From Escherichia coli (GTDB lineage: Bacteria > Pseudomonadota > Gammaproteobacteria > Enterobacterales > Enterobacteriaceae): DNA of 64,000 nucleotides. The position numbers were made by a program, and so were the translations under genes. Numbering within the stretch: position 1 is the stretch's first letter; each line of letters begins with the position of its first letter. The notes below the pieces were generated by a model that was given only the letters and a program-made list of their open reading frames with translations, had not been told where the DNA came from and did not search any database. This document shows positions 32,365 to 39,265 of this stretch, piece by piece. The stretch lies in assembly GCF_002854065.1 (NCBI RefSeq), contig NZ_CP024147.1, one strand, 5' to 3'.

Positions 32365-32441
32365 GCGCCCTTAGCTCAGTTGGATAGAGCAACGACCTTC
32401 TAAGTCGTGGGCCGCAGGTTCGAATCCTGCAGGGCGCGCCA
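32365..32441 (+). tRNA. argU: tRNA-Arg (anticodon UCU)
   Basis: 77-nt sequence GCGCCCTTAGCTCAGTTGGATAGAGCAACGACCTTCTAAGTCGTGGGCCGCAGGTTCGAATCCTGCAGGGCGCGCCA with cloverleaf and CCA end. Confidence 0.95.
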
Positions 32442-32443
32442 TT
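32397..32443. repeat. prophage attL core (47 bp, 3' half of argU)
   Basis: Identical 47-bp copy found at 48894-48940. Confidence 0.8.
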
Positions 32444-32456
32444 ACAATTCAATCAG

Positions 32457-33620
32457 TTACGCCTTCTTTATATCCTCCATAATTCCAGAGTGGGACATAT
32501 TTGGGACATTATCACCAAAAATGTCGTCTATTTTCCTCGCATGCTCTGTCAAATGATTAGGCGCAAGGTGAGCATACCTACGAACCATTTCTATGGACTC
32601 CCATCCGCCCATTTCCTGAAGCACTGATAATGGGACGCCTGACTGAATCAGCCAGCTTGCCCAGGTGTGTCTGAGGTCATGGAAACGGAAATCTTCAATT
32701 CCTGCACGACGACAAGCTGATAGCCATGATGTCTTGCTGTCGATGCGCATCTTCCTGACCGCAGGCGTTGATGTTCCATCTGCTCGCTTAGCCGCCTTGG
32801 TATGTACAAACACCCATTTGTGATGCTTGCCTATTTGATCACGCAACACTTTACAGGCGGTATCGTTCAGCGCCACACCAATGGCGCGGTTTGATTTGCT
32901 CTCTTCTGGATTCACCCAGGCAACTCGTCGCTGCATGTCGATTTGTTGCCATTCCAGATTTATGATGTTCGACTTTCTCAGACCAGTTGCCAGCGCAAAC
33001 TTGACGACAGATTTCAGTGGTTCGGGGCACTCATCAATAAGGCGTTTTGCTTCCTCCTTTTCCAGCCATCTGACTCGCTTGTTTCTGACCGCTGGTATCT
33101 TGATGACAGGCGCTTTTTCCAGCCACTTCCAGTCGCGTTCTGCAGCACGGAGAATGGCCTTTATCATGGCAAGATGCTTTGCCTTTGTCTGAGTTGATAC
33201 TGGCTTTGGTTCATAAACAGGCAGTTCTTTACCTTTCCTGATGGCGGCCTGAACTTTCTGTTTCCATATTTCTTTCGTCTTTCTGTTATGCATTCTGCTT
33301 ACAGCAGAGTAAATCTTTGCCTCCGAGATATCTTTAAGCCTTATACCCTCAAAATGTTCAAGCCAGAACTCAATCCGGCTTTTATCTGAATCGAGAGATT
33401 TTTTATCAGCTTTTTCCTCAAGCCATCTTAGGCAGGCCTCTTCAAAAGTGACATCAGGTAAATCCCCTAGCTTTTCTACTCGCCAGAGTTCTGCTTTTCG
33501 CTTGTCGTGCAACTCCTGAGCTTGCCGCTTGTCCTTTGTGCCAAGAGATTCCTTAATTCGTTTCCCGCCCGGGAGCGAATACGAGGCATACCATATTTCA
33601 TTTCTGCGGAAGAGTGACAT
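32457..33620 (-). CDS. intD: prophage tyrosine integrase
   Basis: 387-aa ORF with C-terminal R..H..R..Y catalytic region ([10 protein letters not shown]); adjacent to tRNA. Confidence 0.9.
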
Positions 33621-33847
33621 TTTCTTTCCTCTGTTATGCCATCACCCGCGCTCACCTGGACAGTATGCAGCGGAGACTGAAGCGCCGCAATGCAGGCTTG
33701 CCGTGTTGTGAGGTAAGGAGATTTTGGCTTGGTTGGATCTTTACGTGTTGCCTGTAGGCGGCCTGTTCGTATCCAGTTGGTGGCGGTTGGTCTGGATATC
33801 TTAAGAAACTGACAGGCCTCATCGAGTGTGAGGCTGTATGATTCCAT
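33476..33847 (-). CDS. excisionase/AlpA-like wHTH protein (possibly degenerate)
   Basis: [34 protein letters not shown] motif; reading frame runs 145 nt into int, suggesting altered 3' end. Confidence 0.5.
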
Positions 33848-34097
33848 GGTTACCTCTGCTTTTTGAACGCATGTCACGTAACTTCTTAATGTGTTCTGCC
33901 GTTTCGATCTCTTCTGCTATCCGATCTGCATCAGCTTTATTCACAGGTTCAAAGTCATGATTAAAGCGGAACATGCTGGCGATACATGTTCTGCCTTTTC
34001 GGATGTAGTGAACTTTGTTGTGGGTAGAACGCAGGATTTTGCAGGGAGTGCCGTGGTGGTCGACGTACCAGGTGTTAGGAAAAATGATTCTGAACAT
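33819..34097 (-). CDS. hypothetical prophage protein
   Basis: 92-aa ORF in early-left operon orientation; no recognisable motif. Confidence 0.35.
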   Translation of the reverse strand: MFRIIFPNTWYVDHHGTPCKILRSTHNKVHYIRKGRTCIASMFRFNHDFEPVNKADADRIAEEIETAEHIKKLRDMRSKSRGNHGIIQPHTR

Positions 34098-34144
34098 TTT
34101 TACACCTCAGTTGGACGATGTTGAAATTTGCTGCTTTGAGGCCA

Positions 34145-34363
34145 TCACAGTCCCCATTGTTTGTTCTTAAGTTCGATCTCCTCCTGGCAACTCGCACAAG
34201 TCCGACAACCCTGAACAGCCAGGCGTCTTCGCTCATCTATCGGATCGCCACACTCACAACAATGAGTTGCGGATACAGTCTGGTAGTTCAGACGACGCAT
34301 TTTTATTGCTGTATTGCGCTGTAATTCTTCGATTTCTGATGCTGAATCAATGATGTCTGCCAT
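34145..34363 (-). CDS. TraR/DksA-family C4 zinc-finger protein
   Basis: 72-aa ORF with CxxC...C..C motif (CCECGDPIDERRR...CRTCASC). Confidence 0.6.
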   Translation of the reverse strand: MADIIDSASEIEELQRNTAIKMRRLNYQTVSATHCCECGDPIDERRRLAVQGCRTCASCQEEIELKNKQWGL

Positions 34364-34590
34364 CTTTCATTAATCCCTGAATTGTTGGTTAATACGCTTG
34401 AGGGTAAATGCGAATAATAAAAAAGGAGCCTGTAGCTCCCTGATGATTTTGCTTTTCATGTTCACCGTTCCTTAAAGACGCCGTTCAACATGCCGATCGC
34501 CATGCTTAAATGAGTCGGTGTGAATCCCATCAGCGTTACCGTTTCGCGGTGCTTCTTTAGTATCTGGCTGAAAGAGGGGGTTATTAAGGC

Positions 34591-34953
34591 GTGAATACCT
34601 ACAGCATCACATTACCCTGGCCTCCGAGCAATAATCGCTATTACCGCCATAATCGCGGGCGCACGCACGTCAGCGCAGAGGGGCAGGCATACCGCGATAA
34701 CGTCGCCCGAATCATTAAAAACGCAATGCTGGATATCGGCCTGGCTATGCCTGTGAAAATCCGCATTGAGTGCCACATGCCGGATCGCCGTCGCCGTGAC
34801 CTGGATAATCTGCAAAAAGCCGCTTTTGACGCACTCACTAAAGCAGGTTTCTGGCTGGATGATGCTCAGGTCGTTGATTACCGCGTTGTGAAGATGCCTG
34901 TTACCAAAGGTGGGAGGCTGGAACTGACCATCACCGAAATGGGGAATGAATGA
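34591..34953 (+). CDS. rusA: Holliday junction resolvase RusA
   Basis: 120-aa ORF recognised as RusA; GTG start with AGAGGGGG SD. Confidence 0.9.
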
Positions 34954-35090
34954 TGTTTGAGTTTTATATGGCAGAACTTCTTCGCCACCGCTGGGGGCAT
35001 CTGCGCTTATATCGTTTCCCCGGTTCTGTTTTGACCGATTACCGAATACTGAAGAGTTACGCCAAAACCCTGACAGGAGCAGGAGTATGA
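34950..35090 (+). CDS. ylcG: small prophage protein
   Basis: 46-aa [19 protein letters not shown] overlapping rusA stop; recognised as YlcG. Confidence 0.5.
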
Positions 35091-35175
35091 AGTCAGAGAT
35101 AACAATCAACTAATACTGTTTTGTTGATTTTTGCTTGTAATTGGCGTTTTGGTCTGATTTTTGTGGAGTAAGTTG

Positions 35176-35559
35176 ATGCGTGATATTCAGATGGTTCTTG
35201 AGCGTTGGGGAGCGTGGGCGGCTAATAATCATGAAGATGTGACCTGGTCGTCCATTGCCGCCGGTTTTAAGGGATTAATTCCTTCAAAAGTAAAATCTCG
35301 CCCGCAATGTTGTGACGATGACGCGATGATCATTTGCGGGTGCATGGCCCGTCTGAAAAAGAACAACAGCGATTTGCACGATTTATTAGTAGATTATTAT
35401 ATAGTCGGTATGACATTCATGTCACTGGCAGGTAAGCATTGCTGCTCTGATGGTTATATCGGGAAAAGGTTACAAAAGGCTGAGGGCATAATTGAAGGGA
35501 TGTTAATGGCATTAGATATCCGGTTAGAGATGGATATCGTTGTTAATAACTCTAATTAA
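35176..35559 (+). CDS. quuD: late gene antiterminator Q
   Basis: 127 aa from [18 protein letters not shown] with zinc-binding cysteines; phage Q family. Confidence 0.85.
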
Positions 35560-35589
35560 TACGCCAATTATTTACTAAAAGTTATTAAA

Positions 35590-35740
35590 AATGGGGCGTT
35601 GAAGCGCCCCCAAAAATAAAGGGTAATATATAACAGAAGGTTTGTATAGTTAGAAGCAAGGTTGTGCTTCTAAAGGAAGTGGCTTGAGGGAGCCACTTAT
35701 ATGTTGGGGAGGCAAAGCCTCCCACAACATATCTTTTAGT
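35590..35740. terminator. cluster of four stem-loops between convergent quuD and nmpC
   Basis: GGGGCG-ttgaa-CGCCCC; GAAGCA-aggttg-TGCTTC; AAGTGGCT-tgaggg-AGCCACTT; GTTGGGGAGGC-aaa-GCCTCCCACAAC followed by T-run. Confidence 0.4.
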
Positions 35741-35747
35741 AATCAAA

Positions 35748-36830
35748 TTAGAACTGGTAAACCATACCTACAGCAACGATATCATCGGTAGCAACGCCAG
35801 ATGCTTTCGTGAAATCGCTCTTATCAATCAGGTTGATTTTGTAGTCAACAAAAGTGGACATATTTTTGTTGAAGTAATAGGTTGCACCTACATCAACATA
35901 TTCAACCAGGTCCTGATCACCCCAAACACCCAAGTCTTTTCCTTTAGAATGCAGGTAAGCAACGGATGGACGCAGGCCGAAGTCGAACTGATATTGTGCA
36001 ACAGCTTCGAAGTTTTGTGCTTTGTTGGCAATATGGTTATTACCAAAAACAGTCATGTTCTGGGTTTCAGAATAGGTGGTGGCCAGATAGATGTTGTTCG
36101 CATCATATTTCAGACCAGCTGCCCATACTTCAGCATTTTGACCAGAAGCATTCAGACCGTTGTTACCGTAGATAACCTGATTATTAGTGCGATCAGATTT
36201 AGCATAGGTTGCACCCACGCCGAATCCTTCATACTCATAAGTAGTTGAGAAACCGAAACCATCGCCATTAGCTTCAGTTACTTCATTTCGGTCATTTTTG
36301 CCCTGATACTGAGCTGCAAAGTTCAGGCCATCAACCAGACCAAAGAAGTCGTTGTTACGATAAGTTGCAACACCTGTGGTGCGACCAGTCATGAACACAT
36401 CTGTTTGGGTCCAGGTATCGCCACCGAATTCTGGCAGAACGTCAGTCCACGCACCGATGTCGTATGCTACACCGTAGTTACGGCCGTAATCGATTGAGCC
36501 GTAGTCACCGAATTTCAGGCCAGCGAAGGCAAGACGGGTTTTATCTTTGGAGGAACCTTGAGATTCAGCGCGGTTGCCTTTGAATTCATATTCCCACTGA
36601 CCGAAACCAGTCAGTTGATCGTTGATTTGGGTTTCACCTTTGAAGCCAAGACGGGCATAAGTAGTATCACCATCATCTGCATCATTAGAGGAGAAGTAGT
36701 GCTTAGCATTAACTTTCCCGTACAGATCCAGCTTGTTACTGTCTTTATTATAAATTTCAGCTGCCTGAGCAGACATCGCCATCAGTACTGATGCAGCTAC
36801 AGCAGAAATTGCCACTGTTAATTTTTTCAT
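35748..36830 (-). CDS. nmpC: OmpC/OmpF-family outer membrane porin, intact
   Basis: 360-aa ORF with signal peptide [23 protein letters not shown] and C-terminal ...VYQF; recognised as NmpC. Confidence 0.9.
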
Positions 36831-37258
36831 CGTGAGCCCTTTTTTTTGAACTATTATTAAAAAATGATGTCACTGCGCGATAAATATTCATCTAATCAAT
36901 GTGATTATTTCAAGATGTAAGTTTTGGTTTCTCGTTTAATTTGTGAAGTAGATCTCTATTTTTATCTGAACTTTTTTCTATCGAATCCTATTCATGGCTC
37001 TTGGCTGAATAAAAATAAATCTATTAGCCAATTTATATTAATGGCTGTTATTTATAAGTGCTCTATAATTTGAAGGTTCAATTTAAATTGGCTAAAAATA
37101 ACGCTGGAAATTATTTGTTGGTTATTTGTTGAGATTTTCTTATGTATTTGTAGTGGTGTTTTCAATACTCGGTAGCATTCTCGCAAATATCATTTAGTGG
37201 TTTACGTACGTAAAAAATTGGTTATGCTGTTAAGAGTGGTTACTTCGTTACACAGCTT

Positions 37259-37290
37259 AAACCCGCCGTCGAGCGGGTTTTTCCATTTTT
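37259..37290 (+). terminator. tR'-like rho-independent terminator upstream of lysis genes
   Basis: ACCCGC-cgtcga-GCGGGT followed by TTTTT; about 115 nt upstream of holin start. Confidence 0.55.
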
Positions 37291-37403
37291 TGAGTCTCGA
37301 TATTAGCTGATAACCCAATACCTGAGTTATTCACTGACTCCGAGTCTGTTACGTTTCGTAGTATTCCCTCAATTTACACCCGCTTTGTCTGCGAGGTGGG
37401 GTT

Positions 37404-37619
37404 ATGAAATCCATGGATAAGTTAACAACGGGTGTCGCCTATGGCACCTCAGCAGGTAGTGCCGGGTACTGGTTTTTACAGCTGCTCGATAAAGTCACGC
37501 CCTCACAGTGGGCAGCAATAGGTGTGCTGGGTAGCCTGGTATTTGGCCTGCTGACGTACCTGACAAACCTTTATTTCAAGATTAAAGAAGATAAGCGCAA
37601 GGCTGCGAGAGGTGAATAA
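37404..37619 (+). CDS. essD: class II holin (phage 21 S-like)
   Basis: 71-aa ORF with two TM segments and charged C-terminus. Confidence 0.85.
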
Positions 37620-38116
37620 TGCCTCCATCATTACGAAAAGCTGTTGCTGCTGCTATTGGTGGCGGGGCTATTGCTATAGCATCTGTGTTAATCACTGGCC
37701 CAAGTGGTAACGATGGTCTGGAAGGTGTGAGACATAATCCTTACAAAGACATAGTTGGTGTATGGACTGTATGTTACGGGCATACAGGAAAAGACATCAT
37801 TCCCGGTAAAACGTATACCGAAGCAGAGTGCAAAGCCCTCCTGAATAAAGACCTTGCCACTGTCGCCAGACAAATTAACCGGTACATCAAAGTCGATATA
37901 CCGGAAACAACGCGCGGCGCTCTTTACTCGTTCGTCTACAACGTGGGTGCTGGCAATTTCAGAACATCGACGCTTCTTCGCAAAATAAACCAGGGTGATA
38001 TTAAAGGCGCATGTGATCAGCTACGGCGCTGGACATACGCTGGCGGTAATCAATGGAAAGGACTGATGACTCGCCGTGAGATTGAGCGTGAAGTCTGTTT
38101 GTGGGGGAAACAATGA
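37619..38116 (+). CDS. rrrD: phage lysozyme (endolysin)
   Basis: 165-aa ORF with T4-lysozyme-like motifs; ATG overlaps holin stop. Confidence 0.9.
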
Positions 38117-38571
38117 GCAGAGTAACCGCGATTATCTCCGCTCTGGTTATCTGCATCATCGTCTGCCTGTCATTGGCTGTTAATCATTACCGTGATAACG
38201 CAATCGCCTACAAAGAGCAGCGCGATAACAAGGCCAGTGAACTGGAGAAGGCGAACGCCACCATCGCTGACATGCGGAAGCGTCAACGTGATGTAGCAGA
38301 ACTCGACGCAAGATACACAAAGGAGCTTGCTGATGCTAACGCGACTATCGAAAGTCTCCGTGCTGATGTTTCTGCTGGGCGTAAGCGCCTGCAAGTCGCC
38401 GCCACCTGTGCAAAGTCAACGACCGGAGCCAGCGGCATGGGCGATGGAGAAAGCCCAGGACTTACAGCAGATGCTGAACTCAATTATTACCGTCTCCGAA
38501 GTGGAATCGACAAGATAACCGCGCAGGTTAACTACCTGCAGGAATACATCAGGACGCAATGCCTGAAATAA
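38113..38571 (+). CDS. rzpD: i-spanin Rz
   Basis: 153 aa from [17 protein letters not shown]; N-terminal TM then coiled coil; lambda Rz-like. Confidence 0.85.
38327..38518 (+). CDS. rzoD: o-spanin Rz1 lipoprotein embedded in +1 frame of Rz
   Basis: 63-aa ORF with lipobox LLGVSAC and proline-rich region, nested in Rz. Confidence 0.6.
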
Positions 38572-38603
38572 TTTTTTTGCAAATCACAAAGTCCATTTAA
38601 TGA

Positions 38604-38627
38604 GCCTCGCGATGCGGGGCTTTTTTT
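38604..38627 (+). terminator. rho-independent terminator after lysis cassette
   Basis: GCCTCGC-gat-GCGGGGC hairpin followed by TTTTTTT. Confidence 0.55.
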
Positions 38628-38866
38628 ACATCTGAATTTCACAGCGCATCTCACGCGCATATTACATCACCCGAGCCTTTCAGAAAGTTGAGCCTGAGAA
38701 CTGCCGTATATGGTGGCGACCATCTCGGGGCGGCTTTTCTGTGAGACAGGCTCACTTTCTAAAAGGTAAAGACGCTATGAACCAATTAGAAGAAAAGCTT
38801 CAAAGAATGATTTCCTTATACAAGGAAGATAACTGCCAAAAAGTTCCTTAAAACATCGCAGAGTTA

Positions 38867-39265
38867 ATGGAATTGGCAAGTGAATTTTCTGGCATGCTTA
38901 AGTCGTCAGGTGTTCGGTCAGCGTTCTTTGTTGAAATGCTGATGCACGGCGGACTTATGGCAACAATGAGACGTGTAATGGAAGACCAGAGAAAAGAACC
39001 TCCTCAGGTATACGTTTTGTCATCGAAGAAAACTGGGCTAACCAAAATTGGGTATTCATCCAACATTCCACAACGCATCAAATCGCTTGGCAACTCTGGA
39101 CCAGACTGCTTGAAGCTTGAGTGCCTGATCCCTGGTGGAAGAGAAACTGAAAACATGCTTCATCGCAAATTTGCCGCAAAGAGAAAGCACGGTGAATGGT
39201 TCGCCCTGTCCAAGGATGACATTGAGGGATTGAAATCTGTAGCGATTACTTCTGATGGCTATTAA
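38867..39265 (+). CDS. T5orf172/GIY-YIG-like domain protein
   Basis: 132-aa ORF; motif VYVL..TGLTKIGYS..RIKSL...HRKF...HGEWFAL; in frame with a 24-codon upstream ORF separated by one TAA. Confidence 0.45.
   Translation: MELASEFSGMLKSSGVRSAFFVEMLMHGGLMATMRRVMEDQRKEPPQVYVLSSKKTGLTKIGYSSNIPQRIKSLGNSGPDCLKLECLIPGGRETENMLHRKFAAKRKHGEWFALSKDDIEGLKSVAITSDGY

Follow-up and report, generated by a model that had tools for sequence, protein, structure and literature searches.

Genes at the locus and integrity of the porin gene

The window, a 64,000-nucleotide stretch of Escherichia coli DNA, contains a porin gene on the strand opposite to that of its phage neighbours. These features were located with the ORF list and Pfam searches.

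32365-32441: tRNA-Arg(UCU) gene
35176-35559, forward strand: quuD (Q), late antiterminator of the Q21 family (PF06530, E = 1.2e-53)
35748-36830, reverse strand: intact nmpC/lc porin gene (360 aa, ATG to stop codon)
37404-37619, forward strand: essD, S21-type holin of 71 aa (phage P21 holin S, E = 2e-35)
37619-38116, forward strand: rrrD, endolysin (phage lysozyme, E = 2.3e-48)
38101-38571, forward strand: Rz (Pfam matches and annotation of a 99.9% identical genome)
38327-38518, forward strand: Rz1, embedded in Rz (same evidence)
37404-38571, forward strand: the whole lysis cassette, essD-rrrD-Rz/Rz1

The porin gene is therefore situated between Q and an S21-type lysis cassette. PF06530 was named as the Q21 family by Yin et al. 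(PMC9388147). The longest ORF in the quuD frame encodes 132 aa, starting at 35161 and ending at 35559.

A Pfam search matched residues 29-360 of the porin to positions 1-337 of the 337-position Porin_1 profile (PF00267, E = 3.6e-152). The whole mature length aligned with the solved chains of OmpK37, OmpC, OmpK36, PhoE and OmpF, the best E-value being 2e-135. Codons 1-23 (36762-36830) encode a signal peptide identical to the annotated 23-aa Lc signal peptide of phage PA-2, and its length was taken from that annotation. The translation contains the loop-3 motif PEFGG and ends in VYQF, an aromatic end that serves as the beta-signal. By homology, 35748-36830 is the nmpC/lc porin gene, encoding a general bacterial porin of the OmpC/OmpF/PhoE class. 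Its product would form a trimer of 16-strand beta-barrels with a diffusion channel.

K-12 NmpC was reconstructed by joining its two fragments (365 aa) and aligned with the window protein. The alignment ran end to end with 330 of 365 residues identical and two in-frame gaps, one of 3 residues and one of 2; it showed neither a stop nor a frameshift. In MG1655, nmpC is annotated as a pseudogene split by IS5B (574591-575785) after codon 346; no IS element was found within the window gene. An earlier note, made from the letters alone, had described a complete 360-aa porin ORF on the opposite strand, had taken it for the nmpC that IS5 disrupts near its 3' end in K-12, and had suggested alignment to K-12 nmpC as a check. 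All of this was borne out: the ORF runs from ATG to stop with a full-length Porin_1 match, 330 of 365 residues agree with K-12 NmpC and likewise with PA-2 Lc, the locus is the same, and IS5 is absent. The end of Q at 35559 and the other coordinates given there also agreed with the ORF list and scans.

A 2.6-kb segment of the window matches E. coli strain 100416 at 99.9% identity. In that strain the order is fimZ, tRNA-Arg, intD, a group of DUF4222, TraR-like and zapA-fragment genes, rusA, ylcG, quuD, porin, essD, rrrD and Rz, with appY, ompT and envY further along after Rz. The element is DLP12, that is, a DLP12-type cryptic, defective lambdoid prophage integrated at argU. Highton 1985 and Blasband 1986, as cited in later papers, place nmpC in qsr'/DLP12, a defective prophage, and have it interrupted by IS5 in K-12; the citation for the lc gene of PA-2 is Blasband et al. 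1986.

The putative late promoter and terminator of Q

With the nmpC-essD spacer as query, 353 phage records were matched. Most matched only at 37200-37282, and in most of the 353 records this match sits at or just past a Q gene. In the 933W record (Y10775.2), the depositor's features on the matched stretch are a putative promoter homologous to pR' and a putative terminator homologous to tR'. The window, K-12, 933W, SfII and PhiR40_1 were then compared in one five-sequence alignment. The blocks GTTTACG, CGTAAAAA, TATnnT, TAAGAGTGGTTAC and a terminator stem AAACCCGCC...GCGGGTTT occurred in this conserved order. The following elements were proposed.

37201-37206, forward strand: -35 of pR', TTTACG (alignment to 933W, SfII, PhiR40_1 and K-12)
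37223-37228, forward strand: -10 of pR', TATGCT, after a 16-nt spacer (same alignment)
37231-37243, forward strand: invariant block TAAGAGTGGTTAC, putative transcript start region (alignment)
37259-37291, forward strand: tR', intrinsic terminator predicted to end the short pR' transcript (scan, fold and alignment to the annotated tR' of 933W)

The terminator scan reported a forward-strand stem at 37259-37280 followed by TTCCATTTTT, and this sequence folds as a hairpin with a U-tract. The homology of 37200-37291 to the pR' and tR' annotated in 933W places the late promoter and terminator downstream of the porin. We assign 37201-37291, about 110 bp upstream of the holin gene, as the putative pR' and tR' of the window Q subtype. 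Transcription from pR' would start at about 37235, and the TAAGAGTGGTTAC block is likely the sigma-dependent pause or Q-loading region.

A consensus promoter scan with a 9-of-12 threshold found no site in either intergenic spacer, 36831-37403 included. The proposed pR' hexamers match the consensus at 8 of 12 positions. As the scan gave no site, promoters were placed by homology. The window Q is 98% identical to K-12 QuuD, 84% to PhiR40_1 Q and 77% to 933W Q; its match to the solved Q21 is distant and confined to the N-terminal part (E = 1e-7). The Q proteins of 933W and PhiR40_1 belong, like that of the window, to PF06530. The Q21 binding repeat is TGAGCA (PMC6606751). This repeat is not present in the window pR' block, and the Q21 site is not transferable to QuuD because the two proteins are only distantly related. 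An Rfam scan of 34900-38700 at E <= 1 gave a single match, Trp_leader over pR'-tR'. It was sub-threshold (21 bits, where the gathering score is 41; E = 0.61) and was rejected as reflecting terminator likeness.

The putative pR' is thus not adjacent to Q: it lies 1.64 kb from the Q stop codon, with the porin between. Such a separation by the porin has long been known from DLP12 and PA-2. The earlier note had placed a tR'-like terminator at 37259-37290 and the late promoter somewhere in the nmpC-holin spacer. Alignment with the annotated 933W tR', the scan and the fold agree on the former, and the latter is narrowed to 37201-37228 by alignment with the annotated 933W pR'. The alignment also refines the position of the porin, which appears to sit not merely between Q and the terminator but between Q and its own promoter.

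The hairpin block between quuD and nmpC

Four inverted repeats were found in the 190-nt spacer between the convergent quuD and nmpC genes.

35593-35610, reverse strand: hairpin 1, GGGGCG/CGCCCC with six G-C pairs, then AUUUUU (scan and fold)
35650-35673: hairpin 2, 9 bp without a U-tract, in the predicted nmpC 3' UTR
35677-35698: hairpin 3, 8 bp without a U-tract, in the predicted nmpC 3' UTR
35699-35732, forward strand: hairpin 4, 15-bp stem with one bulge, then CUUUU(U) (read directly from the sequence)

Hairpin 4 was not reported by the terminator scan, which allows no unpaired base within a stem. The block is flanked by a 10-bp inverted repeat, TTACTAAAAG (35572-35581) and CTTTTAGTAA (35733-35742). 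The folding z-scores of the spacer were -8.5 on the reverse and -6.9 on the forward strand, and none of 200 shuffles folded as well. The cluster of four hairpins that had been noticed at 35590-35740 was therefore real, spanning 35593-35732 and folding beyond shuffled sequences on both strands. A 53-aa ORF on the reverse strand (35585-35746) was dismissed as non-coding because it consists of the hairpin sequence.

On the nmpC strand, hairpin 1 is the sole canonical intrinsic terminator. It is predicted to end the nmpC transcript and would leave it with a 3' UTR of about 155 nt. Since hairpin 1 is the farthest from the stop codon, hairpins 4, 3 and 2 would fall within this 3' UTR. In the direction of Q, CUUUU(U) comes after hairpin 4, which could therefore stop transcripts leaving Q. 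This allocation of hairpins to transcripts is inferred from their strand and U-tracts.

The block is 96% identical across seven versions, a divergence too small for covariation to be informative. Among these versions, hairpin 1 keeps an invariant stem with a varying loop, a single change in hairpin 4 shifts its bulge, and the stems of hairpins 2 and 3 are broken by changes in the Lambda_4C10 group. In phages, the block was seen solely at Q-porin junctions (36 of 36 records). The idea that it is an independent mobile or repeated element was rejected on that ground, within the phage collection.

The nmpC promoter region and reports of expression

The nmpC-essD spacer is 98% identical to that of K-12 (563 of 573 positions). 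The stretch that corresponds to K-12 PnmpC -199 to -1 has only 2 differences.

36831-37029, reverse strand: predicted nmpC promoter/regulatory region, in which an A8 run closely precedes the ribosome-binding site

In K-12, a sigma-70 promoter within -199 to -1 was shown by deletion and 5' RACE (PMC11677980). The earlier expectation that 36831-37403 holds the nmpC promoter is supported by the 98% identity to this mapped region. The same stretch had also been called AT-rich as a whole. This is right for about 400 of its 573 bp: GC content is 26.5-30% over 36800-37200, but 43% at 37200-37400.

PnmpC is listed as CRP-activated and as repressed by OmpR, IHF and MprA in RegulonDB-type data (PMC11677980), and the PA-2 record J02580 annotates two CRP sites. 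A shift to 37 °C raised nmpC mRNA 16.5-fold (PMC8544407), and this mRNA was reported as a target of RybB (PMC3333887). NmpC protein was found by proteomics in STEC strain PMK5 (PMC9731836). In E. coli B, nmpC is termed a "quiescent" porin gene by the title of Prilipov et al. 1998, so that an intact copy may still give no protein under laboratory conditions. From the near-identity to the mapped promoter, the nmpC promoter may well be active in the window strain, and NmpC would then be expected in its outer membrane.

Distribution and alleles of the module

The Q-porin-holin module was counted when at least 80% of the query was covered in one place. It was present in 2392 of 5426 complete E. coli genomes and, at the same coverage, in 36 phage records, some of them of inducible and plaque-forming phages. 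The phage records include the PA-2 lc record J02580, many lambdoid phages of recent isolation, and 434B, a phage that had acquired the K-12 DLP12 segment, IS5 included. The exact 360-aa protein occurs on at least 1000 public contigs under the names porin OmpD, outer membrane porin protein LC and porin OmpC. In some genomes nmpC is interrupted by IS30 or ISVsa5. As nearly half of complete E. coli genomes have the module, the arrangement is ordinary; being so common, it makes an intact nmpC the normal state and K-12 the exception.

With about 90% identity to K-12 NmpC and PA-2 Lc, the window allele differs from them in clustered patches. Six porin alleles were compared and formed at least three groups. 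They varied only in patches at about residues 149-154, 182-187, 216-231, 263-267, 294-310 and 335-347, which we take, from the topology of OmpF and OmpC, to be the end of loop 3 and loops 4-8.

A probable variable cargo slot between Q and pR'

The Q proteins of these phages diverge after the residues LEMD (about 35536), and homology resumes at the -35 of pR'. The point of divergence marks the left junction of what appears from these alignments to be a cargo slot. Its contents were as follows.

933W, PhiR49_2 and ASU11: slot empty (933W Q ends inside pR')
PhiR40_1: 148-aa ORF, reverse strand, no Pfam match
SfII: 340-aa ORF directly upstream of pR', reverse strand, no Pfam match (SfII Q gene not located)
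phiP27: GIY-YIG nuclease gene, forward strand
DLP12, PA-2 and relatives: nmpC

The content of the slot thus varies between related phages, and we classify nmpC, on this comparative evidence, as a phage moron, a lysogenic-conversion cargo gene in the variable Q/pR' slot. Its putative own signals are a predicted terminator at hairpin 1 and a promoter region 98% identical to the mapped one of K-12.

Very probably, then, this is the Q-nmpC-pR'-lysis segment of an argU-integrated DLP12-type prophage, in which nmpC is a moron with its own signals outside Q control. The gene would be read from a sigma-70 promoter of its own, within the AT-rich spacer, to its own intrinsic terminator, hairpin 1, against the direction of phage late transcription. 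Lying upstream of pR' and pointing away from it, nmpC would not need Q for its transcription from the resident prophage; with pR' downstream of the porin, the gene would not come under late-gene control. Q would act only on the short pR' transcript, allowing read-through of tR' into essD-rrrD-Rz/Rz1. References cited in PMC7918800 have the DLP12 lysis cassette controlled by its own Q. Rightward transcripts from Q would probably be halted at hairpin 4 before running antisense into nmpC.

A broader reading can be put forward only tentatively. The slot may be a recurrent site for cargo (nmpC, the 148-aa ORF, the 340-aa ORF and the GIY-YIG gene), and the 190-bp hairpin block may be a cargo-borne bidirectional transcription insulator and 3'-UTR stabiliser. 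If true, this would be a small general design rule that keeps lysogenic-conversion genes outside Q control, unlike stx, which lies downstream of tR'.

Alternative explanations

The intact gene could be silent in its host, at the transcriptional or post-transcriptional level, ordinarily adding nothing to the outer membrane and kept only by hitch-hiking with the prophage remnant. The "quiescent" of the E. coli B title points this way, as do the repressors OmpR, IHF and MprA listed for PnmpC and the insertions of IS5 (K-12), IS30 and ISVsa5 in several genomes. The upstream region also has a GC content of 26-30%, a composition characteristic of DNA silenced by H-NS. Against this, PnmpC transcripts were detectable in K-12 (PMC11677980), the mRNA was induced at 37 °C (PMC8544407) and the protein was detected in an STEC strain (PMC9731836). 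The abundance of the exact protein on public contigs, and variation in discrete patches rather than in stops or frameshifts, also argue against silence. We consider a silent gene unlikely, though it is a good deal more plausible than the two readings below.

The late promoter could instead follow Q directly, at 35560-35650, and run antisense through nmpC, with 37200-37291 as merely a second terminator. This would fit the canonical cassette, which has pR' directly after Q (bioRxiv 10.1101/651190), and 933W, where pR' overlaps the end of Q. The -35, -10 and transcript start of 933W, however, align with 37200-37245 and not with 35560-35650. The phage matches to 35540-35760 are Q-porin junctions only, the promoter scan gave no site in 35560-35650, and the hairpins there would block the transcript before Q loading. 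We regard such a promoter as highly improbable. Slightly less probable still is that the gene is a chromosomal ompC/ompD paralogue that came to lie near phage genes by chance and is no phage cargo. The RefSeq/NCBI pipeline name "ompC: porin OmpC" and the high similarity to OmpC-class structures would be compatible with such an origin. But the same gene lies between Q and holin in 36 free phage genomes, is missing from the same slot in related phages, and here is inside an argU-integrated DLP12 element; the phage records refute a chromosomal origin. The preferred reading remains that of a prophage moron placed between Q and pR'.

Significance and comparison with known systems

An intact nmpC in a DLP12-type prophage is established biology. 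The only additions made here are the precise placement of pR' and tR' by homology and the view of the Q-pR' interval as a variable slot. The significance beyond correct annotation is small. The RefSeq name "porin OmpC" could mislead porin inventories made for studies of antibiotic permeability or phage receptors. An extra OmpC-class porin with variable patches can alter phage and colicin sensitivity and permeability, and strain-level studies should therefore count nmpC.

The closest relatives are other copies of the same module. K-12 nmpC (b0553, in DLP12) has the same locus, quuD-nmpC-essD, with the same orientation, flanking spacers and hairpin block. Its first 148 residues are identical to those of the window allele, whereas later substitutions are clustered and the protein has 365 rather than 360 aa. 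The window allele lacks IS5B, and the IS5 target TTAG of K-12 reads TTCG in it. The window prophage also lacks the xisD-to-ybcO region of K-12 DLP12 and is even more decayed. The lc gene of PA-2 (Lc porin, "protein 2"; GenBank J02580) is the same gene with the same layout relative to the lysis genes. The PA-2 allele is of the 365-aa K-12 type, and the window porin belongs to a different allele group. No counterpart of PA-2 ORF1 of at least 40 aa was present in the window ORF list. PA-2 is a viable phage, whereas the window prophage lacks immunity, replication and most structural genes. In the complete genomes of phages PhiR70_1 and ev243, the DNA of the Q-porin-holin module is 98.7% identical to that of the window, and the PhiR70_1 porin is identical to the window porin at 358 of 360 residues. 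Lambda_4C10, another recently sequenced lambdoid phage with a complete genome, also has a porin gene.

Salmonella OmpD and E. coli OmpC, OmpF and PhoE belong to the same family and length class as NmpC. They are core chromosomal, whereas nmpC is carried by a prophage and occurs in some strains but not in others. The Q-pR'-tR' cassette of 933W has a pR'-tR' block of about 85 bp in common with the window, including TAAGAGTGGTTAC and the terminator stem. The 933W Q gene shares its last codons with pR'; in the window, the gene and the promoter would be 1.64 kb apart with a reverse-strand porin in between. The cargo of 933W, stx2, is downstream of tR' and under Q control, whereas the porin cargo of the window would be outside it.

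nmpC as an insertion sequence target

In the window, nmpC is an intact porin gene. At the exact position of the K-12 IS5 insertion (35803-35813, after codon 346), it reads TTCG. The IS5 target in K-12 nmpC is TTAG/CTAA, and the difference changes Leu to Ser in ...FTKA[L/S]GV.... The K-12 IS5 target tetranucleotide is therefore absent from the window allele. In E. coli NZ_CP100994 and NZ_AP027588, the porin gene region was broken by other insertion sequences, namely an IS30-family element and the IS4-like ISVsa5. Because different elements interrupt the porin region in other strains, nmpC seems to attract insertion sequences repeatedly, beyond IS5 in K-12.

Sequences on either side of nmpC

A homopolymer run at 36833-36840, A8 on the coding strand, follows the nmpC promoter and precedes the ribosome-binding site. 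The same run is one base shorter in K-12. In some phage records (Chlobot and PhiR63_2), the frame stays open through the run from an upstream ATG, and the porins are annotated as 385 and 380 aa, 20-25 residues longer. The corresponding upstream ORF of the window (36757-36891) is out of frame with nmpC.

On the other side, a block of four hairpins separates nmpC from quuD (Q). The entire block is flanked by a 10-bp inverted repeat, TTACTAAAAG (35572-35581) and CTTTTAGTAA (35733-35742). On both strands, the two arms were paired in the minimum-energy fold. The block could have been acquired in one piece, but no independent copies of it were found in phages.

The pR'-tR' element (late promoter and terminator of Q) overlaps an Rfam Trp_leader match at 37164-37286 (+). 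At 21 bits and E=0.61, the match stayed below the gathering score of 41 and most likely reflects a mere attenuator/terminator likeness.

Prophage context and comparison with K-12 and phage 434B

Compared with K-12 DLP12, the window copy is much more deleted, as seen at 32365-34590. The copy is without the immunity, N and nin regions. The genes of this part, rusA and the ORF after Rz are as follows.

32457-33620, minus strand, intD
33819-34097, minus strand, DUF4222 gene, directly after intD
34145-34363, minus strand, TraR/DksA-type zinc-finger gene, between the DUF4222 gene and rusA
34591-34953, plus strand, rusA, next after the TraR/DksA-type gene
38867-39265, plus strand, 132-aa ORF after Rz, with Pfam MUG113 and T5orf172 matches

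The 132-aa ORF is annotated as a GIY-YIG nuclease family protein in the 99.9% identical genome (E. coli strain 100416). Since K-12 carries borD in this area, on the opposite strand, the ORF marks a further swap of cargo, on the downstream side of the lysis cassette.

In laboratory phage 434B (OL657227.1, 1469-5060), the phage's own segment was replaced by the Q-nmpC::IS5-lysis segment of K-12 DLP12. Its depositors annotated this segment as non-homologous to 434 and placed a crossover in ylcG. Phage 434B thus documents the acquisition of the Q-nmpC-lysis module by a phage from the cryptic prophage.
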